NCBI GenBank assembly: GCA_902764415.1
Contig: CACWVU010000009.1
Coordinates: forward strand, 3,438 to 67,437
Length of the DNA stretch: 64,000 nucleotides
Direction of reading: 5' to 3'
DNA from: an uncultured bacterium
GTDB lineage: Bacteria > Verrucomicrobiota > Kiritimatiellia > RFP12 > UBA1067
The notes under the pieces: generated by a model
The model's database searches: none
Seen by the model: only the letters and a program-made list of their open reading frames with translations
What the model was told of the DNA's origin: nothing
Program-made: the position numbers and the translations under genes
Shown here: positions 50,187 to 64,000 of the stretch, in pieces
Position numbering within the stretch: the stretch's first letter is position 1
Layout of the letters: each line of letters starts with the position of its first letter

Positions 50187-50346
50187 ATGCGCCAGTGAGC
50201 CTGAACAACACCATACGCATGTGCTCTGCCGTGCTGTCTACCATTTCCGCCGCGTCGGCGACGGATATAGGTGACATAAGGAGGTAATAGGATGAGTGCG
50301 GCATTGGTGTCGTGTACATGTAAGTCAAAAATGCTATATACACATA

Positions 50347-51966
50347 ATGGCGCAGCTTGAACATATAGAGGCGATTGAGAAGCGGCTTTGGAGCGCGGCG
50401 GATACGCTGCGGGCGAATTCCAATTTCGCCGCGAACGAGTTTTTTATGCCCGTGATGGGGCTTATCTTCCTTCGCCATGCCTACAGCCGGTATCTGGCGG
50501 TGAAGGACGAGGTGGTCAAGTCGCTGCCGTCGCGGGGCGGTAAGACGCGCGAGCCGACGAAGGAGGACTTCTCCGCGAAGGGTGCCGTGTTTCTCCGTCC
50601 GGAGGCGCAGTTCGACTATCTTGTCTCGCTGCCCGATTCCGCCAATCGTGCCGAGGCCATCATCAGCGCGATGGAGTCCATCGAGGCGGACTACGAATCG
50701 CTGAAGGGCGTTCTGCCGAAGGAGGAATACAACGAGCTGGACAACGAAATTCTCGGACAGCTCCTGCGCAAGCTGAATCCCGAAGAGCTGAAGAATATGT
50801 CGGGCGACGTGTTCGGGCGCATCTACGAATACTTCCTCACGCAGTTCGCCGGCACCAAGGCGCATGACGGCGGCGAGTTCTTCACGCCCATTTCGCTCGT
50901 CTCATTCATCGCCAAGGTGCTAGAGACGGATTCGGGAATCGTCCTCGATCCGGCCTGCGGGTCGGGCGGCATGTTCGTGCAGTCCGCCCGCGTCGTCGAA
51001 CGCCAGAACGAGAACCCCACGGAGAAGCTGACGTTCTTCGGGATGGAGAAGAACGCGACGACGATCCGTCTGGCGAAGATGAACCTGGCCGTTCACGGTC
51101 TGGAAGGCGACATCAAAAAGGCAATCACCTATTACGAAGACCCGCACGAACTGATTGGCAAGGTCGATTTCGTGATGGCGAATCCGCCGTTCAACGTGGA
51201 TGAAATCGACGCGGACAAGATCAAGAACGATCCCCGTCTTCCGTTCGGGCTTCCGAGCGTGAACGACAAAGGCAAGGTCTCGAACGGCAATTACGTCTGG
51301 ATCAGCTACTTCTACAGCTACCTGAACGAACATGGCCGCGCCGGATTCGTGATGGCGGCTGGCGCGGAGTCTGCGGGACGCGGCGACGCGCTCGTCCGGC
51401 GGAAGCTGATCGAGACGGGGGACGTCGATGTGATGGTCTCCATCCGCTCGAACTTCTTCTACACGCGGACGGTCCCGTGCGTCCTGTGGTTCCTGAATCG
51501 TGCGAAGAAGACGAAGGAGCAGAAGAATATCGTGCTGATGATTGACGCGCGGAACGTCTATCGCAAGGTGACGCGCAAGATCAACGACTTCTCGCCCGAG
51601 CAGGAACAGAACCTCTTGGCCATCGTGTGGCTATATCGCGGCGAGACGAAACGCTACAAGGAACTTTTGTCGCATTACCGAAAGAACGGAGAGGACGAGG
51701 CGGCGGACTGGCTGGAGGAACGCTTCCTAGATGGCAAGTACCGTGATGTGGAAGGGCTGGTCAAGGCCGTCACGCGAGAGGAGATCGCGGCAAACGACTG
51801 GTCGCTCACACCGGGCCGCTACGTGGGCGTAGCCGAGACGGACGACAACGATGAGGACTTCGCTGAGAAATTCGCGGCACTCCACGAGGAACTGCGCAAG
51901 CTGAACGCCGAGGCTGCAACGCTCGCCAAGAAGATCGACGCCAACTTCAAGGAGCTGATGGGATGA
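50347..51966 (+). CDS. hsdM: Type I restriction-modification system, methyltransferase subunit
   Basis: HsdM N-domain LWSAADTLRANSNFAANEFFMPVMGLIFLRH; SAM motif VLDPACGSGGMF; catalytic VMANPPFNV. Confidence 0.92.
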   Translation: MAQLEHIEAIEKRLWSAADTLRANSNFAANEFFMPVMGLIFLRHAYSRYLAVKDEVVKSLPSRGGKTREPTKEDFSAKGAVFLRPEAQFDYLVSLPDSANRAEAIISAMESIEADYESLKGVLPKEEYNELDNEILGQLLRKLNPEELKNMSGDVFGRIYEYFLTQFAGTKAHDGGEFFTPISLVSFIAKVLETDSGIVLDPACGSGGMFVQSARVVERQNENPTEKLTFFGMEKNATTIRLAKMNLAVHGLEGDIKKAITYYEDPHELIGKVDFVMANPPFNVDEIDADKIKNDPRLPFGLPSVNDKGKVSNGNYVWISYFYSYLNEHGRAGFVMAAGAESAGRGDALVRRKLIETGDVDVMVSIRSNFFYTRTVPCVLWFLNRAKKTKEQKNIVLMIDARNVYRKVTRKINDFSPEQEQNLLAIVWLYRGETKRYKELLSHYRKNGEDEAADWLEERFLDGKYRDVEGLVKAVTREEIAANDWSLTPGRYVGVAETDDNDEDFAEKFAALHEELRKLNAEAATLAKKIDANFKELMG

Positions 51967-53759
51967 GATGGACGATTGAACAGCTTAAGTCCGTTCGTGA
52001 ATCGGAGGACAAGGTCGAATTTAAACGCGGCGAGGGCGGAAACATTGCGTATGATGGCGGATCTCGAATAAAGCCAGCTGAAAGGCGGCGTTGTATTCTG
52101 GGGTATGTAATTGCTTTATGTAACGAAAACGGCGGATCTCTCGTCATTGGGATGGATGACAAGTATCCGCATTGTGTAATCGGCACTAAGCAAGCCGAGA
52201 GCGCGTTGGGGGATCTGGAAGCGCACATATACCGGGATACTGGCATTCGACCAGAGGTATATGAGCTCTTTGAGAATGAGGCTGAAAAGGAAGGTCGCGT
52301 CGTTGTGATTGATGTGCCGCCTCGTCCAATTGGCCGTGTTTATAAGTTTGAAGACGTGGCGCTAATGCGTGTGGGTGAAGAACTTAAGCCGATGTCTGAC
52401 GAATGTTATTGCCGAATTGTTCAAGAGCAGGAGCCAGACTTTTCCCAGCAGATATGCGAGGGTGTGGACATTCTTGATCTTGATGACGAAGCAATTTCCG
52501 TCATGCGTAAGAAGTATGCGGAGAAGCAACACAACCAGAAGTTCCTCACGCTTGACAAATTGCAAATCTTGACGGATCTTGACTTGGTGCGCGATGACCA
52601 TGTCACGAACGCTGCCGTCCTGCTTTTGGGGAAAGAGAAAATTATTAGGGAACGGATTCCTCAGGCTGCCGTGATGATTGAATATCGGTCTGCCGAGTCG
52701 CGTATACCATTTGACAATCGAGTGGAATACCGCAAACCGTTCTTCTTGATGATTGATGAGTTGTGGCATGACATTAATCTCCGTAATGGAGGATTCTCGG
52801 TTAAGGAGGGGCCCTATATCTTTACAGTTCCATATTTCAATGAAGAGGTTATCCGTGAGTCTATCAACAATGCGATAGCACACCGCGATTATCGCCGTCA
52901 GAGTGAGACGGTGATTAAGCTTTATCCCGAGAAGATGACGATTATCAATGCCGGAGGATTTCCAAACGGCGTGACAGTTGGAAATCTTCTGACTGTGCCC
53001 AGTACACCGCGAAATCGTCTTCTGGCGGATGTCTTGTCCAAGACTGGCGTCGTGGAACGTTCAGGCCAAGGCGTGGACAAGATTTATTACAATACACTTT
53101 CGGAAGGAAAGGAGGCGCCGGACTATTCGGGAAGTGATGACTTTAAGGTCGAACTGACGCTGTCGGCAACAATGAAGGATCGCGGATTTGCATTGTTCAT
53201 TGAGTCTGTCCAACAGACTTTGCCAGACAATCGCAAGCTTTCGGTTCTTGAGATCCTGACGTTGTCGAAAATCCGTGACGGTGTACCCTCGCCTCAACTT
53301 GATAAAGACATCCTGCACAAGTTGCTGGAGCGGAATCTGATCGAGAAACGAGGGAAGACGAGGGGGATGTCGTATATTTTGGGGCGCAGTTACTATGATT
53401 TTACAGGAGACCTTGCGGAGTATCAAAGGCGGAGTGAATGGGGGCAGGATCAAATGCTTTCGGTAATATTGCCTTTGTTTGGTAAGGTAAGAGCCGCCAA
53501 AATGGGTGATTTTGCCAAACTGCTTGAAGGTCACATGACCCGTCGCCAGATACGCGTTGGCATCCAGAAATTCGTGGATGTTGGAATTTTGGTTTCTGAA
53601 GGGACTGGTGCCGGAACGCGCTATAGCCTAAGCGAGACATACAAGGAGAGGACAAAAATATTGGATGAAGCGCTTATTATTGGATTGAAGGAGATTGCTA
53701 AAAGGGAATGGCCAGAAAAAGGCCAAGAAACAGGTGAGAAAGAGGGAGAAAAAGCCTAA
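51963..53759 (+). CDS. AlbA_2 (divergent AAA/Schlafen-like) + HATPase_c_4 domain protein with C-terminal wHTH-like region
   Basis: ESEDKVEFKRGEGG...YVIALCNENGGSLVIGMDD (AlbA_2). RESINNAIAHRDYRRQSETVIKLYPEKMTIINAGGFP...TPRNRLLADVLSKTGVVERSGQGVDKIY (HATPase_c_4). Start overlaps the hsdM stop (ATGA). Confidence 0.8.
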   Translation: MRWTIEQLKSVRESEDKVEFKRGEGGNIAYDGGSRIKPAERRRCILGYVIALCNENGGSLVIGMDDKYPHCVIGTKQAESALGDLEAHIYRDTGIRPEVYELFENEAEKEGRVVVIDVPPRPIGRVYKFEDVALMRVGEELKPMSDECYCRIVQEQEPDFSQQICEGVDILDLDDEAISVMRKKYAEKQHNQKFLTLDKLQILTDLDLVRDDHVTNAAVLLLGKEKIIRERIPQAAVMIEYRSAESRIPFDNRVEYRKPFFLMIDELWHDINLRNGGFSVKEGPYIFTVPYFNEEVIRESINNAIAHRDYRRQSETVIKLYPEKMTIINAGGFPNGVTVGNLLTVPSTPRNRLLADVLSKTGVVERSGQGVDKIYYNTLSEGKEAPDYSGSDDFKVELTLSATMKDRGFALFIESVQQTLPDNRKLSVLEILTLSKIRDGVPSPQLDKDILHKLLERNLIEKRGKTRGMSYILGRSYYDFTGDLAEYQRRSEWGQDQMLSVILPLFGKVRAAKMGDFAKLLEGHMTRRQIRVGIQKFVDVGILVSEGTGAGTRYSLSETYKERTKILDEALIIGLKEIAKREWPEKGQETGEKEGEKA

Positions 53760-53853
53760 ACCGGCCGACGTAAATGCCAATAATTGCGATTATTCGCATA
53801 AATAATTCAGTTAGAAATGTCCAAGCAATGTCCAATTTGAAGTGGTAGAAGAG

Positions 53854-55119
53854 ATGAAAATCGTAGAACGCGAGATAAATGGCAGGAAAGGATGTGACAA
53901 AAGGCATGATGTCTCTTGTCGCATGCCTCATCGTGCCTCTGGTCTAACGTCTCGCGCCCCGTGGCCGAAGGTGAAGTTGGAGGCAATCGGTAAGGTCATT
54001 ACAGGTATGACACCACCGACAAAGCATCAGGCTTACTATGGCGATGATTATTTGTTTGTAACTCCTTCGGATCTTGGTTTTGATTCGTACTTCATTTCTA
54101 AAACCGAGAGGTGTGTATCACAACAAGGGTACGAGAAGTATCGCAACCGCTTTATTCCTGCAATGTCGACGATGTACACTTGCATTGGATCGACAATCGG
54201 TAAAATAGGACTAAGTCGAGAGACGGTTTTAACAAATCAACAAATTAATTCGATCATCCCAAATGATGCACATGACGCAAGGTTTGTTTATTATTTGATG
54301 CGGTCGTTAACAAACGAGATACGTGCACTTAATGCAGGTTGTGCAGTGCCGATAATTAATAAAGGCGATTTTGAAAATATTGATGTGCCATTAGTCCCTC
54401 TCCCCGTCCAGCGGCGGATTGCCGACATTCTTTCCGCGTATGACGACTTGATCGAGAACAACCGCCGCCGCATCGCCATCCTTGAAGAGACCGCGCGCCT
54501 CTCCTACCGCAAGTGGTTCGGCGGGGCGAATACCGCCCGCACAGCCACGCTGGGGGAGATTTGCCAAGCATTTGGCGGCGGCACGCCGAAAACGACCTCT
54601 CCTGAATTCTGGGATGGTGATATTCCGTGGGTTGTCCCCACAGATATAACGCGTAACACATGCCTTGCATTACTTGATACAGAACGAAAGATCACCGCCT
54701 TGGGGTTACAGAAGTCATCAGCAAAGATGCTTCCCGCTAATGCTATTCTTATGACCAGCCGTGCTTCTGTTGGCTATTTCGGCATGGCAGATTTTCCTGT
54801 TTGCACGAATCAGGGATTCATAAGCATTGTTCCTAACAACGATTCGTGGCGGTGGTATCTGCTTTTTAATTTGATGTTGCGTGTTGAAGAAATTCGCAGC
54901 AATGCCAAGGGCTCGACATTCCCCGAAATCAGCAGAGCCAGATTCAGAAGTATGGATGTTGCTATTCCTGATGACAATGCCTTGATTGAGTTTAACAGAG
55001 CTGTTGAACCGCTTATGCAACAAGTTCGGATTCTTGCCAAGCAATCCGCCGCTCTTGCCGCCGCCCGCGACATGCTGTTGCCGAGGTTGATGAACAACAA
55101 ATTAAGAAAGGATGCATGA
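53854..55119 (+). CDS. hsdS: Type I restriction-modification system, specificity subunit
   Basis: Two target-recognition domains separated by the conserved helix LPVQRRIADILSAYDDLIENNRRRIAILEETARLSYRKWF. C-terminal conserved helix ..AARDMLLPRLMN. Start uncertain (53842 GTG, 53854 ATG or 53926 ATG). Confidence 0.88.
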   Translation: MKIVEREINGRKGCDKRHDVSCRMPHRASGLTSRAPWPKVKLEAIGKVITGMTPPTKHQAYYGDDYLFVTPSDLGFDSYFISKTERCVSQQGYEKYRNRFIPAMSTMYTCIGSTIGKIGLSRETVLTNQQINSIIPNDAHDARFVYYLMRSLTNEIRALNAGCAVPIINKGDFENIDVPLVPLPVQRRIADILSAYDDLIENNRRRIAILEETARLSYRKWFGGANTARTATLGEICQAFGGGTPKTTSPEFWDGDIPWVVPTDITRNTCLALLDTERKITALGLQKSSAKMLPANAILMTSRASVGYFGMADFPVCTNQGFISIVPNNDSWRWYLLFNLMLRVEEIRSNAKGSTFPEISRARFRSMDVAIPDDNALIEFNRAVEPLMQQVRILAKQSAALAAARDMLLPRLMNNKLRKDA

Positions 55120-55120
55120 C

Positions 55121-56530
55121 ATGGAAATTACAGTTGGTTACCTTGACGAGGAACGCGTCAAACTTTGGTCGGAATTAAATGCCGTCAAAAAAGCACTGGA
55201 CGAAGCGGTTGCAAAATTGTCGCAAACAGACAAGGCTACGGTTTCGTCCATTCAGAGCTTAGGACAGGCGCTCGAGAGTAAGATTGCAGCAGTAAAGAAG
55301 ATCGCAGATGAAAAGACGCCTGAAGATGTGCAAACGGCGAGTAGGGCGGCGCAAGAAGTTGTCAAGATCAAGAACGATGTCCAGGCACTTCAAAAGGATA
55401 CTGAAGAGCACCGTTCCCGTTTGACAGCAGCGAAAAATGCATTGAAACGAATACAGGGCATCTCGGACAATTGTGATGCTTCAAGCAAAGAAGTTGAAGG
55501 GAATAGGGTAAAGATTGCGGAAGCAACAAAATCTATTGATGCATATCTTGCACAACTTGGCGAAAGAAAAGCTGCAATAGATGATATGATGACCAAGATA
55601 TCGGCCGCGACGGCGTCAAGTGCAGAAAAATCTCAAGAAGTCGCGAATTTAAAGGCACAGGTTGGTAATGCAACGTCCGAAATATCTGCCGCGAGGCAGA
55701 AAATACAAGAATTGCAGGCCGCTTTTGACGGGTTGAAGGAAAAACAAGATGCAGTATTCAATGATTCCAAAGAGACATTGGGTAATTTGAGTTCTGAGAA
55801 TCAAAGTAGATTTGATAAGCTTTATACAACTAGTGAGAAGCAGATAAAGGAACTGGAAGAGCGCATTAATAAGCTGTTGCCTGGTGCCACTTCACTTTCC
55901 TTATCGTCAGCCTTTGAAAAACGGAAGAAAGCGGTAGAAAGAAACAAATGGTGGTGGGCAACTTTGCTTATCGCATCGGCTGGTGGAATAGTGTACTTTG
56001 GGTGGTGGTCATTATCACTAATGATGAACAATATGGCGTCTACACAGTCTGCTGGACTGCCGTTGTCAACAATCCCAATAAGAATAATGATTATTGCCGG
56101 ACTTGTTATAATTGAGGAGTTTGCGCGACGCAACTACAATGTTAGTTCGCGTCTTGCTGAAGCGTATGCGTATAAAGAGGCGATTGCGCAGTCGTATGTT
56201 GGCTTTAAGAAGGAGCTAGCAGATATTGATTTACCACCTCGCAGAGAAGGTGATATTGTAAAGTCTATTGCGGTATTAGCAGATACATTTTTACAGAAGA
56301 TTGGAGATGAACCAGGCAAGAAAGTTTTTGACAAAGAGAAACCTGCTCTTGGTGTTATGCAGGCCATATCAAAGATGAGTGGACAAGAAGATGTATCTCA
56401 AGATAATAAGGTACAGATTGTTGCAACGGCCACAACGTTCTTGTCAAAGATATCGTGGCCTATCGTTGCTATGGTGACTGTTCTGGCAATAGCAGGATGC
56501 ATAATTACATGGCTTGCGATGCGAGGGTAG
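55121..56530 (+). CDS. Coiled-coil protein (~270 aa) with a C-terminal membrane module (TM hairpin + terminal TM helix); no family recognised
   Basis: Long heptad-like, E/K/A/Q-rich N-terminal half. TM segments WWWATLLIASAGGIVYFGWWSLSLMM, IPIRIMIIAGLVIIEEF and WPIVAMVTVLAIAGCIITWLAM. AAAGGA lies 8 nt before ATG 55121 (alternative ATG at 55112 overlaps the hsdS end). Lowest-GC gene of the island by eye. Confidence 0.7.
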   Translation: MEITVGYLDEERVKLWSELNAVKKALDEAVAKLSQTDKATVSSIQSLGQALESKIAAVKKIADEKTPEDVQTASRAAQEVVKIKNDVQALQKDTEEHRSRLTAAKNALKRIQGISDNCDASSKEVEGNRVKIAEATKSIDAYLAQLGERKAAIDDMMTKISAATASSAEKSQEVANLKAQVGNATSEISAARQKIQELQAAFDGLKEKQDAVFNDSKETLGNLSSENQSRFDKLYTTSEKQIKELEERINKLLPGATSLSLSSAFEKRKKAVERNKWWWATLLIASAGGIVYFGWWSLSLMMNNMASTQSAGLPLSTIPIRIMIIAGLVIIEEFARRNYNVSSRLAEAYAYKEAIAQSYVGFKKELADIDLPPRREGDIVKSIAVLADTFLQKIGDEPGKKVFDKEKPALGVMQAISKMSGQEDVSQDNKVQIVATATTFLSKISWPIVAMVTVLAIAGCIITWLAMRG

Positions 56531-56655: not shown

Positions 56656-56883
56656 ATGAGCCAGAAAATCTCCATACGTTTTTACAATGACCGCGAGGTG
56701 CGGGTGGTGTGGGACGATGCGGGTTCAAAGTGGTGGTTCTCCGTGCTGGATATCGTCGCCGCCATCAACCGTGAACCCGACTACGCCAAGACGCGAAACT
56801 ACTGGAAATGGTTGAAGGCAAAGCTGAGGCGCGAGGACAGTCAACTGGTTAGCGCCACTACCCAAAGGAGCGAACTGACATGA
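56656..56883 (+). CDS. Bro-N-like small protein (75 aa)
   Basis: GGAGG lies 4 nt upstream of ATG 56656. ISIRFYNDREVRVVWDDAGSKWWFSVLDIVAAINREPDYAKTRNYWKWLKAKL matches the N-terminal pattern of Bro-N/RhuM-type DNA-binding proteins but stops early. The stop overlaps the helicase start (ATGA). Confidence 0.6.
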   Translation: MSQKISIRFYNDREVRVVWDDAGSKWWFSVLDIVAAINREPDYAKTRNYWKWLKAKLRREDSQLVSATTQRSELT

Positions 56884-59078
56884 TAACGCGTGAACAGGCT
56901 GTGGAGATGTTGCGTCGGGGAATCGGGCGCAATGATGCCGATTTTCGCGATGGTCAGTGGGAGGCGATAGACGGTATTTTGAACCATCGGCGTCAGCTGG
57001 TCGTTCAGCGGACGGGGTGGGGCAAGAGCATGATCTATTTTCTTGCCGCGCGGTTCCTGCGCATGGAAAGGCGCGGCATGACGTTGCTGGTGTCTCCGCT
57101 CTTGGCGCTCATGCGGAACCAGATCGCAGCGGCCCAGCGCGTGGGGATTGTTTGTGACACGATCAATTCAACAAACCGCGATCAATGGCCGGAGATCGAG
57201 GCGCGTGTGATTTCGGGGGCGTGCGACTTTCTGATTGTCGCCCCGGAGCGGTTTGCCAATGAAGAGTTTTGCGTCAATGTGCTTGATCGGATCAAGAACA
57301 ACATCGGGCTTCTCGTCGTTGACGAAGCGCATTGCGTGTCCGATTGGGGACACGATTTCCGTCCCGACTACAAGAAGATATCGAATCTCCTTAAAGGGCT
57401 TCCGCCCAATATGCCTGTCTTGGCAACGACGGCCACGGCGAACATGCGGGTCGTTCGTGATGTCGAGGCACAGCTGGGAGGGCGCGTTGATGTTTCTCGC
57501 GGTAGTCTCGTCCGCAAGAGCTTGTTCCTGCAGAACATCCGTCTCCGCACGCAGGAAGAGCGTCTGGCATGGCTGGCAGAGACGCTGAAAAACAGGATAG
57601 CCGGTTCGGGCGTGGTCTACGCCCTGACGATTCGTGACGCCGAGCGGGTCGCCAGGTGGCTGCGCATGAACGGGCTTTCGGCGTATGCCTATTCGTCTGG
57701 CGCGATGCCGCCGGAAGACATGGACGCGGCATTGCGCGAAGAGCTTGAAGACTCGGAGACGTGGAAGACCGCTGCAAAAGACGAGGCGCGGAGTAATGCC
57801 TATCGCATGTTCCTGGAGGATTTGCTGCTGAAGAACAGGATCAGGGCCCTTGTGGCGACATCGGCGCTGAGCATGGGGTTCGACAAGCCCGATCTGACGT
57901 TTGTCATCCATTATCAGCGTCCGAAGTCGGTGGTGGACTACTATCAGCAAGTCGGGCGCGCGGGGCGCGGCGTCGATTTCGCGTACGGTATTCTGCTGAA
58001 TGGCGACGAGGACGACGAAATCGCCGGATACTTCATCAAGAGCGCATTCCCCAAAGAGCGGGATGTGAAGGAGATGTTGAGCGCCATTGGCGAGAGCGAC
58101 GAAGGATTGTCGATCGTTGAACTAATGGCGCGCATGAACGTGCGGCGCAGCAAGATCGAACAGGCTCTCAAGTTTGTGATGTCCGAGAACCCGTCTCCAG
58201 TCGTGAAGGTGAAGTCAAAGTATGTGGCAACGCCGTTCCTGTCGCAATACGAACTGCCGGCGGCGAACATCCAGCGTCTTACGGACATACGACATCAGGA
58301 ATTGGCGCGAATGGATGAATACGTGAAGACGGGGGATTGCCTCATGAAATTCCTCTGTTCCGAATTGGACAGCCCTGCCGACGAGCCGTCATGCCAGCGG
58401 TGTGGCAATTGCCGTCCGCAGGAGGCCTTGCCGACAGGTTGTGATACTTCTCTTGCGCAAAAGGCCGCCGAGTTTCTGAACAAGTCCGATTTGCCGATAA
58501 CGCCGCGCAGGCAATGGGCAGATGCGGCGACGGCGGCGACGGCGTTTGGGATCGCGGTGAAGAAGAGCATTCCCGCCGCGTTAATCATGGAGGAAGGGCG
58601 CGCGTTGTCCGTCTATGGCGCTGGCGGCCTTGGGCGACTTGTGCCCCAGGGGAAATACAGGACAACGCCGCCGCGCTTTGACGACCGGCTTGTCGAGGCA
58701 AGTGCCGAGCTTCTTGCGAGGTGGAGCCCTGAAAATTGGCCGGAATGGGTGACATGCGTTCCGTCGCGCAGAACGCCGACTCTTGTTCCTGATTTCGCGC
58801 GGCGTTTGGCGGCGAAATTGAGATTGCCGTTTGTCGAGTGCCTGCGCAAGGTGAAGGATACTCCGCCCCAGAAGGAAATGGAAAACTCGTCCTTCCAGCA
58901 GAACAATCTCATCGAGGCGTTCGAGGTTGTCTGTAAGCCGCCGGCAGGGGTGTGCCTGCTTGTGGACGACATGGTGGATTCAAAATGGACTTTAACAATT
59001 GCGGCGGCGATGCTGCTAAAGGCCGGAGCGGCGTCCGTGGTGCCGTTCGCGCTGGCCGATTCTTCAGGAGGAGAGTGA
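56880..59078 (+). CDS. RecQ-family SF2 helicase fused to a C-terminal ComF/ComFC-type phosphoribosyltransferase-like domain
   Basis: RTGWGKS (motif I); VVDEAHCVSDWGHDFRPDY (DEAH + RecQ motif); ATTATAN; QQVGRAGR; CQRCGNC zinc finger. C-terminal WVTCVPSRRTPTLVPDFARRLAAKLRLPF...PPQKEMENSSFQQNNLIEAFEV...VCLLVDDMVDSKWTLTIAAAMLLKAGAASVVPFALA (ComF-like PRTase). Confidence 0.85.
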   Translation: MITREQAVEMLRRGIGRNDADFRDGQWEAIDGILNHRRQLVVQRTGWGKSMIYFLAARFLRMERRGMTLLVSPLLALMRNQIAAAQRVGIVCDTINSTNRDQWPEIEARVISGACDFLIVAPERFANEEFCVNVLDRIKNNIGLLVVDEAHCVSDWGHDFRPDYKKISNLLKGLPPNMPVLATTATANMRVVRDVEAQLGGRVDVSRGSLVRKSLFLQNIRLRTQEERLAWLAETLKNRIAGSGVVYALTIRDAERVARWLRMNGLSAYAYSSGAMPPEDMDAALREELEDSETWKTAAKDEARSNAYRMFLEDLLLKNRIRALVATSALSMGFDKPDLTFVIHYQRPKSVVDYYQQVGRAGRGVDFAYGILLNGDEDDEIAGYFIKSAFPKERDVKEMLSAIGESDEGLSIVELMARMNVRRSKIEQALKFVMSENPSPVVKVKSKYVATPFLSQYELPAANIQRLTDIRHQELARMDEYVKTGDCLMKFLCSELDSPADEPSCQRCGNCRPQEALPTGCDTSLAQKAAEFLNKSDLPITPRRQWADAATAATAFGIAVKKSIPAALIMEEGRALSVYGAGGLGRLVPQGKYRTTPPRFDDRLVEASAELLARWSPENWPEWVTCVPSRRTPTLVPDFARRLAAKLRLPFVECLRKVKDTPPQKEMENSSFQQNNLIEAFEVVCKPPAGVCLLVDDMVDSKWTLTIAAAMLLKAGAASVVPFALADSSGGE

Positions 59079-59079
59079 A

Positions 59080-60399
59080 ATGACGGACATGGATTTTAGC
59101 ATTTCCGAGGACACGCAGGCGACGTTGCTGCTCTGCGGTACCTTGGGCAAGGACAATGGGTCGGCTCGTCCGCTGACTCTGCCGCAGTACAACGCCGTCG
59201 TACAGGCGCTGGTTTCTCTTGACAAGCGACCGTCCGATTTGCTGCATGAGGGTGGGCTTGCCGAGACGATTTGCTCGATGCCAGTGGAGAACGCAAGGTT
59301 GAAGGAACCGGCATCGGCAGGTCGGTTGAAAACCTTGTTGGATAGGGGTTTCGCGCTGTCGATGGCCTTGAATCGGTGGGCGCAATACGGAGTGCGTCCG
59401 ATCGGGCGCGGAGACGGTCTCTATCCGGCACGAATGAAACTGTATCTGAAGGGCAAGGCCCCTGCCATTTTGTATTACGCGGGGAGCGATCAGCTTTTGA
59501 CTGGCGGCGGCATGGCGTTTGTCGGGTCGCGGAACATTTCTGACGAGGCGACGGAGGCAATCCGGCGTGTCGTTCGCGAGTGCCTCGATGCCAACATGCC
59601 CATTGTGTCTGGAGGGGCAAGAGGAGCCGACCAAACTTCCATGCGTACGGCGTTTGAGTGCGGGGGAAGCGTCATCGCGGCATTGCCCGGAGATTTGCTG
59701 AAGACATGCCTTGCGCATGAGAACCGTGAAGCCATTGGTGCAGGAAGGGTTTTGTTGTTTTCCGCTGTCGATCCAGACGAGCGTTTCACGCCGATCAATG
59801 CGATGGATCGCAACAAGTATATTTATGCAATGGCAGATTATGCGTTCGTGGCGCAGTCTGATACGAAGGGCGGAACGTGGACTGGCGCCGTGGAAGAACT
59901 GAAGCGCCCCGAACACCATCCTGTGTTTGTCTATATGGGACGTTCACGCGTCGAGGGGTGTGCGAAGCTTGTCGCGCAGGGGGGCGTTGCATGGACGCCG
60001 TCTGACACTTTGCAGCCAATGCTTGAAAAGGGTGCGGCAACTGCAAATAAACCTACCAAAGCATTACAACCGTCGTTGTTTGATTTTGCGGCGACGCGTA
60101 CGGATGAAGAACATAAAGAGGATATGGCGCTACGACAAGTCTCCGAGCCGAGGGTCAGACAGAGAAGACGTTGCGGAAAAGCATTGATCCTGACGGGTAT
60201 TTTTCGCCAAAGGGATGGAAGATGTTGCTTGATAAGGCCTGTGCCGAAGGGAAATTGGCGCGAACGGAAAAGCCCAAGAAGCGCGGGAAGCCAGACGTCC
60301 TCTATGTGGGGCTCCAAAACGAGGGATGAACATGAGCGTCTATACCGAAGACAATCTGGTGCAGAAGACGACTGCGGAGTATCTGGTCAATTCGCTTGA
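59080..60399 (+). CDS. DprA/Smf-like (SLOG-fold) protein; 3' end probably frameshifted (plausible C-terminus in the +2 frame ends at 60329)
   Basis: GGAGG RBS inside the recQ 3' end. Rossmann core GGGMAFVGSRNISDEATEAI...MPIVSGGARGADQTSM...VIAALPGDL...MDRNKYIYAMADYAFVAQSDTKGGTWTGAVE. After about 60110, frame 0 becomes R/C/W-rich nonsense and overlaps hsdR. The +2 frame reads ...GQTEKTLRKSIDPDGYFSPKGWKMLLDKACAEGKLARTEKPKKRGKPDVLYVGLQNEG*. Confidence 0.7.
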   Translation: MTDMDFSISEDTQATLLLCGTLGKDNGSARPLTLPQYNAVVQALVSLDKRPSDLLHEGGLAETICSMPVENARLKEPASAGRLKTLLDRGFALSMALNRWAQYGVRPIGRGDGLYPARMKLYLKGKAPAILYYAGSDQLLTGGGMAFVGSRNISDEATEAIRRVVRECLDANMPIVSGGARGADQTSMRTAFECGGSVIAALPGDLLKTCLAHENREAIGAGRVLLFSAVDPDERFTPINAMDRNKYIYAMADYAFVAQSDTKGGTWTGAVEELKRPEHHPVFVYMGRSRVEGCAKLVAQGGVAWTPSDTLQPMLEKGAATANKPTKALQPSLFDFAATRTDEEHKEDMALRQVSEPRVRQRRRCGKALILTGIFRQRDGRCCLIRPVPKGNWRERKSPRSAGSQTSSMWGSKTRDEHERLYRRQSGAEDDCGVSGQFA

Positions 60400-63300
60400 C
60401 TGGAACGAGAGCGTCTATGCCATGCAGGAGGTCTTCGGCACGGCGGGGACGCTGGGGCGCGTTGACGAGGGCGAGGTGCTGCTTGTGCGCTATCTCCGAC
60501 CTGCGCTCGAAAAACTGAATCCAGGTCTGCCCGCCGCTGCATACGACGATGCCGTCCGCATCCTTGCGGACACTTCCGTCTCGATGGGACTTGACGCCAT
60601 CAACCGCGAGAAGTACAAGCTTCTTCTCGACGGCATCCCCGTTCGCTACACGGCGGCGGACGGCACGAAGAAAAAGGCGGCGTTGCGCGTCTTCGACTTC
60701 GACGATCCGGACAAGAATCATTTCCTCTGCGTACGCGAACTGTGGTTGCGCGGTTCGCTCGGCCGTCGCCGCCGTGCGGATGTCGTCGGGTTCGTGAACG
60801 GCGTGCCGCTCGTCTTCATGGAGCTGAAGAACGTCACGAAGGACATCTCCATTGCCTACCGCGACAACTTCTGCGATTACCGCAAGGTCGTACCGCAGAT
60901 ATTCCACTTCAACGCGTTCGTGATTCTCGCAAACGGCATCGATGCGAAGATCGGTACGCACTCCGCCAAGTTCAAGTTCTTCCATGCCTGGAAGCGTCTT
61001 TCCGAGGATGAACCGGGTGCGGTGGACATGGAGACGTTGTTGAAGGGGTCATGTTCCAAGGCGAATCTGCTCGACCTCTTCGAGAATTTCATCGTCTATG
61101 ACGAGTCGGCGGGAGCCGTGGCGAAGATCCTCGCCCGCAACCACCAGTTCCTTGGAGTGAACCGCGCGGTAGAGGCGGTGCGCAACCGCAAGGGCACGGA
61201 TGGCAAGCTGGGCGTGTTCTGGCACACGCAGGGTTCGGGCAAGAGCTATTCGATGGTCTATTTCACGCGCAAGGTGCACCGCAAGCTCGGCGGGAACTTC
61301 ACGTTCCTGATCCTGACCGATCGCGATGAGCTGGATACTCAGATCTACAAGACGTTCGCGGGATGCGGAGTTGTCGACAACGACAAGGACGAATGCCGCG
61401 CCGCGAGCGGGGCGCATCTGAAAGCGCTCTTGGGTCAGCACAAGAGCCATGTGTTCTCGCTCATCCAGAAGTTCAACGAGGAGGTGCGCCCCGGCGAGGC
61501 CTACACCACGCGCGACGACGTGATCGTCATCTCCGACGAGGCACATCGGACGCAATACGGGCTTCTGGCGCTCAACATGCGCAACGCCTTGCCGAACGCG
61601 GGGTATATCGGGTTCACGGGAACGCCGCTCTTCAAGGGGGACGAGCTGACGAAGCAGGTGTTCGGGGACTACGTGTCCAGATACGATTTCCAGCGGGCGG
61701 TGGACGACGGGGCGACGGTACCGCTCTACTATGACGCGCGCGGGGAGAAGCTCAACGTCGCCACGCAGGACATCAACGAGAAGATTGCCGAGAAACTGGC
61801 GGCATTTGAGGCGGAGGACGTGGATGTCGCCGAGAAGCTGGAGTCTGAACTGAAGCGCGACTACCACGTCATTACGGCGAAAAAACGTCTTGATCAGATC
61901 GCCCGCGATTTCGTGCGGCACTATTCCGCGTCGTGGGAGAACGGCAAGGCGATGTTCGTGTGCATCGACAAGATCACATGCGTGAAGATGTACGACCTCA
62001 TCTCAAAGTATTGGGACGAGGAAACGAGGTCGCTGGAGGCGAAGCTCTACGCCACGGAGGACGAGCAGGAAGAGCAATTCCTCCGGCGACAGGTGGCGTG
62101 GATGACGGAGACGGTCAAGGCCGTCATTGTCAGCGAAGAACAGAACGAGGACGAGAAGTTCGCCAAGTGGGGGCTGGACATCCTGCCGCACCGCAGGGTG
62201 ATGAAGGAAGGGATGAGTCTGCCCGAGTCGTTCAAGTCAAAGCTGGAGTATGTGGGGCGAGACCGCATGGATGTTGACGAGGCCTTCAAGGCGGATGAGC
62301 ATCCGTTCCGCATCGCCATCGTTTGCGCCATGTGGCTGACGGGGTTCGACGTGCCGTCCTTGGGTACGCTCTATCTCGACAAGCCGCTCAAGGCGCACAC
62401 GCTCATGCAGGCCATTGCCCGCGCGAACCGCGTGAACGAGGGCAAGAACAACGGCCTGATCGTCGATTACTGCGGCATTCTCAAGAACCTGCGTCAGGCA
62501 TTGGCGACCTTTGCCGGGGGAACGGGCGTGTTGGGCACGGAAGGCTGCGAGACGGATCCCGTGAAACCGGAGGAGGACTTGCTGGCGGAACTCGACGAGG
62601 CGATCCGATTGGTACGGGAATGGCTGGAAACGCATGGCGCTTCGCTGACGGCGATCATGGAATCGGACGGTTTTGCCAAGAACGCGGCCATCAACGCTGC
62701 GAAGGAGGCAGCGAACGAGAACGACGAGACACGCAAGCGCTTCGAGGTGTTGTGCCGTGCGTGCTTCGCCAAGTTCAAGGCGTGCATCACATTCGCGGGC
62801 GTTAACCGCTATCGCGGCGAATACGCGGCGATTCGCGTCATCTACATGAGCCTTCAGCAGGGGAAGGCAGATGCCGACATCTCGGACATCATGCGTGAAC
62901 TGCAGAAAATTGTGGATGAGGCTATTGTGCCGCAGGAAGCCGTTGGCGACGAACGTGCACCATACGACATCAGCCGCATCGACTTCGAGCGGTTGAGACA
63001 GGAATTCGCCACGTCCAAGTCGAAGCGTACCGCCGTACAGTCGATGAAGGCGACGGTTGAGGCGAAACTTGCCGCGCTCTTGGCGCGCAATCCCCTGCGC
63101 ACGGATTTCCAGCGGCGATACGAGGAGATTGTCGCCGCCTACAACAGCGAGAAGGACCGGCAGACGATTGAGCAGACGTTCGAGGCGCTCTTGAAGTTCA
63201 TCGCCGAGATGTCGGAAGAGGAGGAGCGTGCGGTCCGGGTAGGGCTCGATGAAGAAACGCTGGCGATCTACGACCTCTTGAAGAAACCGGCGTTGTCAAA

Positions 63301-63571
63301 GGCGGATACGGGAAAGATCAAGGCCGTAGCCAAGAACCTATTGGAGAAGCTGAAGGCGGAGAAGCTTGCCGTCAGCCACTGGCGCGACAAGGAAAGTACG
63401 CGAGACGGCGTGAAGAAGCAGATTCGCGATTTTCTTTTTTCCGACGCGACTGGCTTGCCCGCCGCCTATACGGATACGGAAATCGATGTAAAGACGAATG
63501 TCGTCTTTCGGCATATCTACGAGGTCTATCCCGTTTTGCCGTCGCCGTACTACGGACGCAAGAGCGCATAG
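60332..63571 (+). CDS. hsdR: Type I restriction enzyme, endonuclease/translocase subunit
   Basis: Nuclease region RADVVGFVNGVPLVFMELKN; motor motifs WHTQGSGKS, ISDEAHRTQYG, GFTGTPLF. GAGGG lies 6 nt before ATG 60332 (alternative ATG at 60326). Confidence 0.93.
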   Translation: MSVYTEDNLVQKTTAEYLVNSLDWNESVYAMQEVFGTAGTLGRVDEGEVLLVRYLRPALEKLNPGLPAAAYDDAVRILADTSVSMGLDAINREKYKLLLDGIPVRYTAADGTKKKAALRVFDFDDPDKNHFLCVRELWLRGSLGRRRRADVVGFVNGVPLVFMELKNVTKDISIAYRDNFCDYRKVVPQIFHFNAFVILANGIDAKIGTHSAKFKFFHAWKRLSEDEPGAVDMETLLKGSCSKANLLDLFENFIVYDESAGAVAKILARNHQFLGVNRAVEAVRNRKGTDGKLGVFWHTQGSGKSYSMVYFTRKVHRKLGGNFTFLILTDRDELDTQIYKTFAGCGVVDNDKDECRAASGAHLKALLGQHKSHVFSLIQKFNEEVRPGEAYTTRDDVIVISDEAHRTQYGLLALNMRNALPNAGYIGFTGTPLFKGDELTKQVFGDYVSRYDFQRAVDDGATVPLYYDARGEKLNVATQDINEKIAEKLAAFEAEDVDVAEKLESELKRDYHVITAKKRLDQIARDFVRHYSASWENGKAMFVCIDKITCVKMYDLISKYWDEETRSLEAKLYATEDEQEEQFLRRQVAWMTETVKAVIVSEEQNEDEKFAKWGLDILPHRRVMKEGMSLPESFKSKLEYVGRDRMDVDEAFKADEHPFRIAIVCAMWLTGFDVPSLGTLYLDKPLKAHTLMQAIARANRVNEGKNNGLIVDYCGILKNLRQALATFAGGTGVLGTEGCETDPVKPEEDLLAELDEAIRLVREWLETHGASLTAIMESDGFAKNAAINAAKEAANENDETRKRFEVLCRACFAKFKACITFAGVNRYRGEYAAIRVIYMSLQQGKADADISDIMRELQKIVDEAIVPQEAVGDERAPYDISRIDFERLRQEFATSKSKRTAVQSMKATVEAKLAALLARNPLRTDFQRRYEEIVAAYNSEKDRQTIEQTFEALLKFIAEMSEEEERAVRVGLDEETLAIYDLLKKPALSKADTGKIKAVAKNLLEKLKAEKLAVSHWRDKESTRDGVKKQIRDFLFSDATGLPAAYTDTEIDVKTNVVFRHIYEVYPVLPSPYYGRKSA

Positions 63572-63585
63572 AATGGGCATTTTGA

Positions 63586-64000
63586 ATGGCAAGCGACTTC
63601 AAGAAACTTTCCGACAAGGTCAAGCCGCGCGAGCAATTGCGCGACGCTGTGTCACCGTCCGAACTGAAGCCGGAGGCGCTGCTGGCGATTTTGTTGCGCA
63701 CGGGGGCGGCGGGTTGCAACGTCCTGGAGACGGCGCGGCGTCTCGTCGATGCGTTTGGTTCCGTGGCGGAGCTCGTCAAGAGCGACTGGCGCACGCTCGA
63801 CCGGCACATCCGCGAATACAACGAACTGCACCCCGAACGGAAGATCAAGGGCGTTGGGCAGCTCAAGATGCTGGAACTCGCGGCGGCGTTCGAACTTGTG
63901 CGGAGGGGGTATGAGATCGACGGCGAGGACATCCGCCGGATCAAGATTGCCAAGCCGGAGGATTCATACCGCATCTTCCGCGAGGCGGCGCTCGTGGGGG
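63586..64000 (+). CDS. RadC-like (JAB/MPN family) protein, N-terminal part, truncated by window edge (absent from ORF track)
   Basis: Own translation: MASDFKKLSDKVKPREQLRDAVSPSELKPEALLAILLRTGAAGCNVLETARRLVDAFGSVAELVKSDWRTLDRHI...IKGVGQLKMLELAAAFELVRRG. This is the typical RadC N-terminal HhH region (ELLAILLRTG, GIGxxKAxxLxAAxEL). Confidence 0.65.
   Translation, partial: MASDFKKLSDKVKPREQLRDAVSPSELKPEALLAILLRTGAAGCNVLETARRLVDAFGSVAELVKSDWRTLDRHIREYNELHPERKIKGVGQLKMLELAAAFELVRRGYEIDGEDIRRIKIAKPEDSYRIFREAALVG

Follow-up and report, generated by a model that had tools for sequence, protein, structure and literature searches.

The toxin-antitoxin and anti-phage system PsyrTA, for which the name RqlHI is also in use, has been described in the literature (Sberro 2013; Russell & Mulvey 2015; Millman 2022). 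RqlH on its own elicits the SOS response, filamentation and growth arrest; this toxicity depends on the aspartate of the PRPP loop and is lost in the D663A variant, and RqlI binds and neutralizes RqlH (PMC4670107). Among Gram-positive bacteria, it is common to find an RqlH orthologue but no RqlI (PMC4670107). PsyrTA is one of the two-gene toxin-antitoxin systems that Millman et al. report to be involved in phage resistance, and no delta-psyrA transformants were recovered, with toxicity as a possible cause (bioRxiv 10.1101/2022.05.11.491447). PsyrTA of another host provides phage protection; in a native-host study, E. coli PsyrTA gave no protection against the phages tested. In the sister system ShosTA, toxicity requires PRPP binding, the antitoxin is labile, and sensing of ssDNA/RecA has been proposed (PMC11961720, PMC12961424). 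That defence genes can be embedded in restriction-modification (R-M) operons of type I and in BREX operons has likewise been described.

In the window, i.e., the whole 64,000-nucleotide stretch analysed, two adjacent genes very probably form an anti-phage module of the toxin-antitoxin type, PsyrTA (RqlHI), as cargo inside a type I R-M operon of a high-GC Kiritimatiellia genome. The features of the locus are as follows.

50296–51966, plus strand: hsdM, type I methyltransferase (Pfam N6_Mtase 7e-76, HsdM_N; PADLOC MTase_I, 799 bits)
51963–53759, plus strand: cargo gene between hsdM and hsdS, 598 aa (Pfam SLFN_AlbA_2 and HATPase_c_4; phrog_12156, 2e-35)
53842–55119, plus strand: hsdS, specificity subunit of the type I enzyme (Pfam Methylase_S in two stretches, 7e-43; PADLOC Specificity_I)
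55112–56530, plus strand: cargo gene between hsdS and the Fic remnant, 472 aa (N-terminal coiled coil, hydrophobic C-terminal half)
56656–56883, plus strand: 75-aa ORF, 5' remnant of a Bro-N-like/Fic gene (PDC-S04 profile)
56880–59078, plus strand: psyrT, rqlH-type toxin, 732 aa (RecQ-like SF2 helicase core, Zn-binding module, C-terminal PRTase domain)
58558–59075, plus strand: PRTase domain of PsyrT, approximately aa 560-732 (Pribosyltran, Prs PRPP-loop match, Foldseek, invariant residues)
59080–60151, plus strand: psyrA, antitoxin of the rqlI type; part still in its native frame, residues 1-357 (N-terminal region, then DprA/SLOG Rossmann domain)
60151–60152, plus strand: junction of a 79-nt deletion in psyrA relative to contigs L001 and L002 (blastn, direct sequence comparison)
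60152–60399, plus strand: Arg-rich out-of-frame tail, about 81 aa, of the frameshifted psyrA ORF (ORF list, translation)
60152–60329, plus strand: codons of the C-terminal winged-helix/HTH of PsyrA, stranded in another frame (translation equal to the C-terminus of P0001)
60332–63571, plus strand: hsdR, restriction subunit of the type I enzyme, 1079 aa if started at the same ATG as in L001 (L001 gene call; Pfam HSDR_N, SWI2_SNF2, T1R_D3-like and T1RH-like_C; PADLOC REase_I, 545 bits)

The identity of the pair follows from comparison with the PADLOC models. PsyrT matches the PsyrT model with 878 bits (E 1e-264), its residues 4-731 covering profile positions 5-687 of 689, and PsyrA matches the PsyrA model with 305 bits (residues 8-355 on positions 3-344 of 398). 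Because canonical E. coli RqlH and RqlI score 1065 and 671 bits against these models, the models represent the RqlH/RqlI family. The psyrT product is 47-49% identical to E. coli PsyrT/RqlH, and psyrA lies immediately 3' of psyrT in 35 of 36 psyrT loci among GTDB species representatives. A gene-neighbourhood survey had been proposed in an earlier, sequence-only reading of this DNA. That reading had taken the gene set to be unnamed, and had itself set down an existing name as an outcome against it; this claim falls, since both genes match PsyrT and PsyrA and the system is published.

The 732-aa PsyrT carries the motifs RTGWGKS (aa 44), VVDEAHCVSDWGHDFRPDY (aa 146), QQVGRAGR (aa 356) and CQRCGNC (aa 505). 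Pfam detects DEAD (2e-24) and Helicase_C (1e-11), with RecQ_Zn_bind under its cut-off (2e-4), and the AF2 model (pLDDT 89) resembles RecQ catalytic cores. These motifs, domains and model bear out the RecQ-type helicase that had been read at 56880-59078. PsyrT scores 225 bits against recQ_fam (cut-off 219.8) and 264 bits against the recQ equivalog, under the cut-off of 640. Walker A K49, DEAH D148 and motif VI are intact, and K49, D148, D696 and D697, which were mapped onto RqlH numbering, are invariant among 71 homologues. The protein is identical to that encoded on L001.

C-terminal to the helicase, PsyrT has a type I PRTase fold whose PRPP loop is intact. This loop, VCLLVDDMVDSKWTL, spans aa 691-705 (58950-58994); D697 corresponds to RqlH D663, and W703 and T704 are, like the two aspartates, invariant across the 71 homologues. 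The Pribosyltran match of the whole protein is under the cut-off (4e-4; 20 bits versus 26.3). With the isolated C-terminus the match reaches 1.8e-5, and a profile built from 30 PsyrT C-termini matches the PRPP loop of PRPP synthetases (Prs; 5e-5). Modelled with AF2, the last 213 aa (pLDDT 93.7) resemble type I PRTases, with Foldseek matches to PurF, APRT, ComF and ShosT. The best superpositions are those on H. pylori ComF (7p0h; TMq 0.52, rmsd 4.0) and ShosT (8zvd; TMq 0.50, rmsd 3.1), the NCBIfam GntX/ComF match is weak (1.2e-4), and PGAP labels an IS-separated copy of the domain 'ComF family protein'. The PRTase fold with a ComF-like flavour, as initially perceived, was thus correctly recognized.

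The psyrA ORF begins at 59080, 1 nt past the psyrT stop, and encodes the motifs GMAFVGSRNISDEA (144), VSGGARGADQTSM (176), MDRNKYIYAMADY (242) and KGGTWTG (263). Its Pfam match to DNA_processg_A (5e-31) agrees with the DprA/Smf-type protein noted at this position; against the dprA equivalog it scores 82.7 bits, with a cut-off of 191. The end of the gene had been placed at 60329, and the frameshift overlooked. The ORF that starts at 59080 in fact ends at 60399, and 60329 is a stop in another frame; only relatives without the 79-nt deletion have the two frames as one. The deletion removes the KAPYCVETNADVYSVVLPLLLAATAKK codons and shifts the frame. The references, L001 and L002, are metagenome contigs from other samples, about 99.97% identical to the window and both free of the deletion. 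Residues 1-357 are 100% identical to the intact protein P0001, which reaches position 392 of the 398 in the PsyrA profile, compared with 344 for the window copy. Translation of 60152-60329 yields the C-terminus of P0001 (GQTEKTLRKSIDPDGYFSP.GWKMLLDKACAEGKLARTEKPKKRGKPDVLYVGLQNEG), and the stop of this stranded frame (60327-60329) lies 2 nt ahead of the hsdR ATG at 60332. The Arg-rich tail extends 68 nt beyond the hsdR start codon, and in a profile search the frameshifted protein gave no family match past residue 355.

The deletion costs PsyrA only its C-terminal winged-helix/HTH domain. In E. coli, the C-terminal HTH of RqlI is not needed to neutralize RqlH, i.e., RqlI 1-320, which lacks it, neutralizes fully (PMC4670107), and the parts of RqlI required for activity, its N-terminal and DprA regions, are covered by the native 357 residues. 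By analogy with this dispensable HTH, the psyrA product of the window is probably still a working antitoxin. The stability, DNA binding or autoregulation of the shortened protein is possibly altered, and the 81-aa junk tail might destabilize it.

The 75-aa ORF upstream of psyrT had been read as a Bro-N-like component of the system. Its GGAGG, 6 nt 5' of the ATG, and the ATGA overlap with the psyrT start are as described; its role as a system part did not survive. The ORF equals positions 1-70 of the 292-aa PDC-S04 (1e-32), a Bro-N/Fic candidate defence family, and is therefore a fragment. By itself it has no Pfam match, Bro-N included, even at E<=10, while some homologues of about 125 aa carry PF02498. 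A Fic ORF at L010 spans PDC-S04 positions 78-290, and L011 has an internally deleted version of the PDC-S04 gene immediately before hsdR. Among the other psyrT loci examined, the ORF was found 5' of psyrT only in the near-identical contig L001. Judged by its sequence, it is the leftover 5' end of a Fic gene and no PsyrTA component, supplying at most translational coupling.

The location within a type I R-M locus was confirmed by hsdM, hsdS and hsdR. The true hsdM start is likely the ATG near 50347; the MTase_I alignment begins at residue 19. The 472-aa cargo protein gives weak coiled-coil-type matches and has full-length homologues of about 460 aa, and its C-terminal 313 aa weakly match AbiZ (1.6e-5). 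GC content falls from about 70% to 45-60% at about 50.1 kb of the window, which marks an acquired island. The order hsdM-hsdS-psyrT-psyrA-hsdR is found in 53 of 5,426 complete E. coli genomes and in three Kiritimatiellia MAGs (L012-L014), where the linkage of PsyrTA to hsdR is kept while the upstream cargo varies. The Kiritimatiellia and E. coli loci share one R-M family (hsdM 70%, hsdR 61% identical). Their embedded PsyrT proteins are 47% identical, whereas embedded and stand-alone E. coli proteins (RqlH) are 60% identical; since the embedded E. coli PsyrT is closer to stand-alone RqlH, repeated capture at the same R-M site is suggested. L001 no longer has hsdM or hsdS, and the neighbouring gene there has lost its 5' end. 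Elsewhere, psyrT of L005 is frameshifted inside the PRTase domain, and some E. coli psyrTA copies are split by ISEc52.

In intact copies, the psyrA stop lies 2 nt ahead of the hsdR start. Because promoter and terminator scans performed no better than chance, it is solely from spacing that we judge PsyrTA to be probably co-transcribed with the type I R-M genes. PsyrTA might even be functionally coupled to the enzyme, guard-like as PrrC is for EcoprrI, rather than independent cargo; its trigger would then be anti-restriction inhibition of the restriction complex, or DNA ends or ssDNA produced by HsdR. The 2-nt gap, the hsdS-psyrTA-hsdR position common to both groups, the apparent repeated capture and the linkage retained in L012-L014 speak for such coupling. 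However, 32 of the 36 GTDB psyrT loci adjoin no R-M system, about 1,625 E. coli genomes have stand-alone RqlHI between gntU and yhgN, and PsyrTA also occurs within a BREX operon (L006) and at housekeeping sites. The hsdS-hsdR gap, moreover, also houses ABC-3C genes, a Fic gene, an AAA_13 ATPase and a trypsin-like peptidase, and such unrelated cargo fits a generic insertion hotspot. We thus regard a coupled guard as distinctly unlikely. It is also unlikely, if slightly less so, that the pair is mainly an addiction module, stabilizing the island by post-segregational killing with little direct effect on phages. RqlHI does act as a toxin-antitoxin pair, delta-psyrA could not be transformed, native E. 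coli PsyrTA was without detectable protection in one study, and the island around the pair is acquired and low in GC; yet Millman et al. assign PsyrTA to phage resistance, the pair recurs within dedicated defence operons, and the two roles are not exclusive.

With psyrA frameshifted, the module could be partly disabled. That it is decaying, the deletion being a first inactivation step or an assembly artefact and the regulated pair no longer working, we doubt to the same degree as an addiction role. The two near-identical contigs lack the deletion, and L005, the ISEc52 insertions and L001 offer precedents for decay; against this, psyrT is intact, a dead antitoxin beside it should be lethal or strongly counter-selected, and the retained PsyrA residues include what RqlI needs. 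A competence-like ComFA/ComFC/DprA triad rebuilt on a RecQ scaffold, as first proposed, which would process ssDNA or handle a nucleotide signal with the Bro-N ORF as third part, is highly improbable. The ComF superposition, the GntX/ComF match and the DprA domain of the partner reflect resemblance only: the helicase belongs to the RecQ family and is no ComFA, the score for the dprA equivalog is under the cut-off, ShosT superposes equally well, the third part is a Fic fragment, no competence genes lie near psyrTA, and a signal-sensor or effector pair is absent. The tests run gave no support for a nucleotide-derived signal being made or sensed. Just as improbable is a housekeeping role in DNA repair, with an RqlH-type helicase and its regulatory partner next to R-M genes by chance. 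Stand-alone RqlH, as in mycobacteria and commonly in Gram-positive bacteria, and the intact RecQ-family motifs would suit it, but the genome has 70% GC while the island is low in GC, the pair is inside a defence operon, its position differs between relatives, and PsyrT scores under the cut-off of the recQ equivalog.

PsyrTA identity and R-M embedding are consistent with the defence-island context and defence role originally suggested. As an anti-phage module, PsyrTA could operate as follows. In the uninfected cell, PsyrA would restrain the helicase-tethered PRTase of PsyrT. Infection would lift this restraint through host shut-off and antitoxin decay or, alternatively, phage ssDNA or replication intermediates would engage the DprA-like protein or the helicase. 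The freed PRTase might then use or bind PRPP, thereby disturbing nucleotide metabolism and DNA replication and aborting the infection. The type I enzyme would act first, on unmodified DNA, with PsyrTA as a co-inherited second layer.

Steps borrowed from ShosTA may not transfer, in that ShosA does not bind ShosT, whereas RqlI does bind RqlH. The gene pair and its embedding in type I R-M are already known; because the helicase/PRTase and DprA-like pair already bears the name PsyrTA, the finding is an ordinary one.

The gene pair at 56880-59078 (psyrT) and 59080 onward (psyrA) was compared with the PADLOC profiles. The 732-aa product of psyrT matches the PsyrT model PDLC03928 with 878 bits (E 1e-264), residues 4-731 aligning to positions 5-687 of 689, that is, over both the helicase and the PRTase. 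The downstream protein scores 305 bits on the PsyrA model and matches Pfam DNA_processg_A at 5e-31. Canonical E. coli RqlH and RqlI reach 1065 and 671 bits on the same PADLOC models, so these models stand for the RqlHI/PsyrTA family. On the same strand, 1 nt lies between the psyrT stop and the start of psyrA. We regard it as very secure that the pair is PsyrTA/RqlHI, a known and already catalogued defence system. PsyrTA came to light as a toxin-antitoxin pair in shotgun cloning (Sberro 2013); RqlH and RqlI were dissected in ExPEC (Russell & Mulvey 2015, PMC4670107), and PsyrTA is listed among the toxin-antitoxin systems involved in phage resistance (Millman 2022). The sequence-only reading had recognised no named system here. 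Given the full-length matches and the published PsyrTA, that claim was wrong, and the reading had itself named an existing catalogue entry as grounds for giving it up. The striking combination of a RecQ-PRTase fusion and a DprA-like protein is one that PADLOC or DefenseFinder would label automatically. The genes from 50.3 to 63.6 kb, where the + strand holds all substantial genes, are the following.

Genes of the type I R-M region (window positions)
50296-51966, + strand, hsdM, type I methyltransferase (Pfam, PADLOC)
51963-53759, + strand, cargo gene, 598-aa SLFN_AlbA_2/HATPase_c_4 protein
53842-55119, + strand, hsdS, type I specificity subunit (Pfam, PADLOC)
55112-56530, + strand, cargo gene, 472-aa coiled-coil and hydrophobic protein
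56656-56883, + strand, small ORF, 75 aa
56880-59078, + strand, psyrT, 732 aa
59080-60399, + strand, psyrA, 439-aa ORF
60332-63571, + strand, hsdR, type I restriction subunit (Pfam, PADLOC)

All motifs quoted in the sequence-only reading lie where it placed them in both proteins, and the small ORF has the GGAGG ribosome-binding site and ATGA overlap described. The domain calls (helicase, PRTase and DprA) were borne out by Pfam, by a C-terminal profile compared with the PDB, and by AF2 models with fold searches. In the psyrT product, Pfam recognises DEAD and Helicase_C, with RecQ_Zn_bind sub-threshold; Walker A, DEAH, motif VI and the Zn-binding module of a RecQ-like SF2 core are all present, and TIGR00614 (recQ_fam) gives 225 bits against a cut-off of 219.8. 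By sequence and by fold the protein resembles RecQ and BLM structures. A model of full-length PsyrT (pLDDT 89) matches the catalytic cores of RecQ, BLM and RECQ1; Foldseek with this model returned RecQ cores only, and PRTase neighbours emerged from a separate model of the C-terminus.

The Pfam family Pribosyltran is sub-threshold, with 20 bits for full PsyrT and 24.5 bits (1.8e-5) for the isolated C-terminus. A profile of the C-termini of 30 PsyrT homologues matched the PRPP loop of PRPP synthetases (Prs) in the PDB at 5e-5, and for the AF2 model of the last 213 residues (pLDDT 93.7) the fold search returned PurF, APRT and other PRTases of type I. Of the superpositions, the most complete at low rmsd were those with H. 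pylori ComF (7p0h; TMq 0.52, rmsd 4.0 over 168 columns), by which the domain has a ComFC-like PRTase fold, and with ShosT, a defence toxin (8zvd; rmsd 3.1 over 162 columns). This domain is matched about equally well by ComF, ShosT and generic PRTases, and the GntX/ComF NCBIfam model reaches 1.2e-4, below its cut-off. The residues of RqlH that have been tested by mutagenesis (K49, D148 and D663) correspond to K49, D148 and D697 in the window protein and are invariant in 71 homologues. A PDB sequence search for a solved PsyrT or PsyrA structure found none, only RecQ-family and DprA entries. Some PsyrT homologues with 64-66% identity (P0265, P0267 and P0270) are 964-1084 aa long rather than ~732 aa, which implies an extra fused domain.

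Several other assignments were weighed. A housekeeping RecQ fails on equivalog thresholds (TIGR01389, 264 vs 640.2 bits; PRK11057, 191.6 vs 1015 bits) and on genomic context; no RQC or HRDC Pfam domain was found in PsyrT at E<=0.01, and the C-terminus is a PRTase instead. DpdF, the helicase of the Dpd 7-deazaguanine DNA modification cluster, is rejected at 129.7 bits on NF041063 against a 550-bit cut-off, and the PADLOC DpdF models give PsyrT at most 285 bits, as against 878 for the PsyrT model. Two DpdF-labelled PADLOC models, PDLC02869 and PDLC02866 (74 and 255 positions), match the Zn-module/PRTase end of PsyrT and not its helicase region, and the 74-position model gives E. coli RqlH 178 bits; both may have been built from PsyrT-like fragments and could cause mislabelling. 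Membership of ShosTA is likewise unsupported, since the ShosA model covers only the DprA core of the window PsyrA with 87 bits, far below the 305 bits of the PsyrA model, and the N-terminal part of the toxin is a RecQ helicase. Nor is the antitoxin a bona fide DprA: it scores 82.7 vs 191.15 bits on TIGR00732 and 37.5 vs 495 bits on PRK10736, and passes the domain-level Pfam model only. The proposal of a ComFA/ComFC/DprA-like triad, acting on DNA or through a nucleotide signal, fails: the helicase belongs to another family, the dprA equivalog threshold is not reached, and the system already has a name. What is present is a RecQ-family helicase fused to a PRTase, and its neighbours are hsd genes and defence-type cargo. 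The observation itself is thus confirmed with two corrections, whereas its interpretation is partly supported: the defence role and the domains stood, and the novelty did not.

One correction concerns the end of psyrA, which had been placed at 60329. The ORF from 59080 in fact stops at 60399, with an Arg-rich tail without family match, and 60329 is the stop of another frame, the translation of which resembles genuine protein; the frameshift had been missed. The best database relative of the window PsyrA, P0001 (442 aa), shares all of the first ~360 residues (100% identity) and runs on from there in that other frame. Its two source contigs, from two different samples, agree with the window at 99.96-100% identity over 1.9-4.7 kb on each side, and carry 79 extra nt between window positions 60151 and 60152. 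That is, the window psyrA has a 79-nt deletion, by which 27 codons' worth of sequence is gone and the frame is shifted. The C-terminal winged-helix/HTH domain (~345-398 of the PsyrA profile) is thereby lost: coverage of the profile extends to 344 of 398 positions in the window and to 392 in the intact sibling P0001. Because the frame is unbroken in the near-identical contigs, which differ by a simple deletion, programmed frameshifting was rejected. Pfam searches at E<=10 with the PsyrA N-terminus and the lost C-terminal peptide gave no matches, so that the HTH label rests on homologues and literature. Downstream of the deletion, the sole substitution between the window and the near-identical (~99.97%) metagenome contigs L001 and L002 is C>A at 60210, which in the old frame would be Q>K within the lost winged-helix domain; other homologues have K there.

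Without its C-terminal 80-residue HTH, RqlI (residues 1-320) still neutralises RqlH fully (Russell & Mulvey, PMC4670107). Because it is dispensable for neutralisation, the HTH/winged-helix is not a system-defining requirement. The window psyrT is intact and identical to the L001 copy. The frameshift could be taken as a sign that the module is decaying in this genome, which is possible, but the intact toxin speaks for a still functional antitoxin. The simplest reading is that the window psyrA is a tolerated antitoxin variant, in which case a natural allele without HTH beside an intact toxin mirrors in vivo the truncation experiment with RqlI 1-320. The variant may differ in stability or in DNA binding, or the deletion may be an artefact of assembly. 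The extended ORF runs 68 nt beyond the hsdR start, and this overrun may disturb translational coupling. In another locus (L005 2202-6101, MAG GCA_024712465.1), psyrT is frameshifted within the PRTase domain, for which reason the locus was left out of the query alignment for the locus scan; its psyrA encodes 576 aa with a duplicated C-terminal winged-helix module, and two 23S_rRNA_IVP/bAvd-like genes flank the pair, which lies as an insertion between fliR and flhB.

The other correction concerns the 75-aa ORF, which had been taken as a Bro-N-like part of the system. It has no Pfam match of its own at E<=10, and the Bro-N label therefore rests on homologues and literature; the Bro-N Pfam domain is present in some homologues of ~125 aa, which their sources name 'cell filamentation protein'. 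The ORF corresponds to positions 1-70 of the 292-aa PADLOC candidate PDC-S04, a Bro-N-like plus Fic defence protein, and to the N-terminus of a 274-position PHROG. The remainder of PDC-S04 is a Fic domain, covered at positions 78-290 by a Fic ORF in a compared locus (L010) and absent in the window, so that only the beginning of PDC-S04 is present here. A related type I R-M locus (L011) has an internally deleted Fic version directly before hsdR, a 101-aa ORF made up of the N-terminal 73 and the last 27 residues. Upstream of psyrT, the 75-aa ORF was absent in the other psyrT loci examined, except the near-identical L001. From the PDC-S04 match, the L010 and L011 comparison and this absence, the ORF is by sequence the 5' stump of a Fic-family cargo gene and not a PsyrTA component. 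A conserved third component was also sought in the Fic remnant and the coiled-coil gene, and neither was found in 36 psyrT loci. That a Fic gene was the original occupant of the slot we infer from one locus. The ~225-nt Fic 5' block of L011 shares 84% identity with the window and has different DNA on either side; such a block could be an anchor at which recombination exchanges cargo. The Fic N-terminal fragment also occurs in L007/L008 (7001-12426), as an 89-aa copy with 82% aa identity that lies just upstream of a Cas12-type (RuvC_1/NUC)-cas4-cas1 locus, another defence-island boundary.

All three type I R-M subunits, hsdM, hsdS and hsdR, have Pfam and PADLOC matches and lie on one strand. 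GC content is ~70% in the flank, whose genes extend up to 50130, and falls sharply to 45-60% from ~50.1 kb across the R-M block, which is therefore seen as an acquired island. Its right end lies beyond 64000; a RadC-like gene (UPF0758_N + RadC) stands 3' of hsdR in L001 (8766-9524) and L002, and by collinearity begins at ~63586 in the window, cut by the window end (63586-64000). A tRNA scan and an Rfam scan of the window found no tRNA gene, RNA element or tRNA integration site. Consensus scans for promoters and terminators over 50-64 kb gave counts equal to shuffled expectation, so no operon boundaries can be claimed. The nearest relatives are MAGs of Kiritimatiellia, two of which come from goat omasum and yak rumen; PsyrTA is recorded here in Kiritimatiellia from gut and rumen samples.

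A survey of homologue neighbourhoods, proposed in the sequence-only reading, bore out the DprA-like partner, psyrA lying directly downstream of psyrT in 35 of 36 loci in a scan of GTDB species representatives; the sites themselves are variable. Three Kiritimatiellia MAGs (L012-L014) keep the order hsdM...hsdS...psyrT-psyrA-hsdR with different cargo between hsdM and psyrT, including PDC-S02 (YhcG/DUF1016), caspase-like proteins, an AAA_13 ATPase (PDC-S06) and the trypsin-like PDC-S45. Among more distant copies, those of L003/L004 stand alone beside ilvC, that of L005 is placed between genes for flagellar export, and that of L006 lies within a BREX operon. In this lineage, then, the type I R-M operon serves as a multi-slot cargo site, which holds PsyrTA, the SLFN/AlbA_2 gene, a coiled-coil membrane protein and the Fic remnant in the window, and in relatives also ABC-3C genes. 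In L011 (362-7893), a Top1-type Zn-ribbon gene lies between hsdM and hsdS, and the hsdS-hsdR gap contains an ABC-3C-like cassette (CTD10, MC6/MC7, DUF2326) with the internally deleted Fic gene. The SLFN_AlbA_2 + HATPase_c_4 gene overlaps the hsdM stop in the window, and a homologue directly follows psyrA in the BREX operon of Pontiellaceae bacterium B1224 (L006 10329-12041); the psyrTA and SLFN_AlbA_2 cargos therefore co-occur in two different host systems. The 472-aa protein (55112-56530) belongs to a family of ~460-aa proteins (1,482 matches at E<=0.001), with weak coiled-coil matches to ZorA, JetC and LmuB and a weak AbiZ match (1.6e-5) for its C-terminal half. Within its gene, at window position 55403, the homology to L001 (1-1631) begins; the L001 DNA upstream of that point has a CapD-like polysaccharide gene and no hsdM or hsdS.

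The same hsdM-hsdS-psyrT-psyrA-hsdR block occurs in 53 of 5,426 complete E. coli genomes, with layout and insertion point identical to the window (for example strain 2/0, NZ_CP023853, annotated hsdM-hsdS-RecQ family helicase-DprA-hsdR). Its proteins are 70% (HsdM), 61% (HsdR), 47% (PsyrT) and 36% (PsyrA) identical to those of the window. About 1,625 further E. coli genomes carry stand-alone RqlHI between gntU and yhgN. A composite R-M-PsyrTA unit might have moved between phyla as a whole, but the embedded E. coli PsyrT is 60% identical to E. coli stand-alone RqlH vs 47% to the window protein, so this was rejected and the two embeddings are probably independent events. In two E. coli genomes, NZ_CP124405 (H20, H30 and H31) and NZ_CM190149 (H21), the IS3-family element ISEc52 interrupts the embedded block; in the former it lies within psyrT, and PGAP labels the separated PRTase piece 'ComF family protein'.

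In ExPEC, RqlH alone causes SOS induction, filamentation and growth arrest; its toxicity requires the PRPP-loop aspartate D663, helicase-dead mutants are still harmful, and RqlI binds and neutralises it (PMC4670107). In the sister system ShosTA, toxicity requires PRPP binding and the toxin upsets purine metabolism, and the labile antitoxin binds ssDNA and RecA (PMC11961720, PMC12961424). The window has an intact RecQ-type motor joined to a likewise intact PRTase fold for PRPP binding, and after it a partner of DprA/SLOG fold. In a mechanism built on these elements, infection would lower or divert PsyrA, the helicase-tethered PRTase would then turn active, and nucleotide metabolism and replication would collapse, aborting the infection. 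The type I enzyme would act as the first layer against unmodified DNA, and PsyrTA as the second.

Repeated capture at hsdS/hsdR suggests a closer tie, in which PsyrTA guards the R-M system in the manner of PrrC, but most PsyrTA copies have no R-M neighbour and the hsdS/hsdR slot houses many unrelated cargos. We consider it improbable that repeated, independent capture at this junction of one type I R-M family, in Kiritimatiellia and E. coli, reflects functional coupling, with PsyrTA as a guard of the restriction enzyme triggered by anti-restriction proteins or by HsdR-made DNA ends or ssDNA, and with the HTH-less psyrA retuning that coupling. A pure addiction role is compatible with the toxin-antitoxin behaviour and with one negative phage test in a native host. 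For work on PRTase activity and the phage trigger, the window locus offers no easier access than the E. coli or Bacillus systems already available.

Compared with known systems, the window pair resembles competence in combining, within one functional neighbourhood, a helicase with proteins of PRTase and DprA fold, with ComF among the best fold matches; it differs in that no competence genes surround the window locus and that the phenotype of PsyrTA orthologues is toxicity and defence, not DNA uptake. Its embedding is a known kind of arrangement. Defence genes within type I R-M and BREX operons have been described ('guilt-by-embedding', Payne 2024, bioRxiv 10.1101/2024.01.29.577857), and embedded type I R-M cases such as PrrC-EcoprrI and TgvAB (PMC11411939) share with the window cargo between hsd genes, on the same strand and with tight or overlapping junctions. 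In the window, several cargo slots are filled (hsdM-hsdS and hsdS-hsdR); for PrrC, functional dependence on the R-M complex has been shown, whereas PsyrTA is not known to have one, and most of its copies are not R-M-linked. The embedded E. coli PsyrTA sits in a related R-M family, but without the SLFN/AlbA_2 gene, the coiled-coil gene and the Fic remnant.

With ShosTA, the pair shares a PRTase-fold toxin, PRPP binding being needed for ShosT toxicity, and a DprA-like antitoxin (PMC11961720, PMC12961424). However, the N-terminal domain of ShosT is pyrophosphatase-like where PsyrT has a RecQ helicase, and RqlI binds its toxin RqlH, which ShosA does not do with ShosT. The likeness to PsyrTA/RqlHI extends to the two-gene order with the toxin upstream and abutting starts, to a toxin composed of a RecQ-like helicase, a Zn module and a C-terminal PRTase, and to the antitoxin plan of an N-terminal region and a DprA/SLOG domain, then an HTH. 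The window psyrA departs from this plan through its 79-nt frameshifting deletion. Relative to the E. coli proteins, the window PsyrT is 47-49% and PsyrA 33-36% identical, PsyrT is ~35 aa longer, and the pair lies between hsdS and hsdR rather than alone between gntU and yhgN. Toxicity of the toxin alone, its neutralisation and binding by the antitoxin, and phage protection are features of the PsyrTA orthologues.
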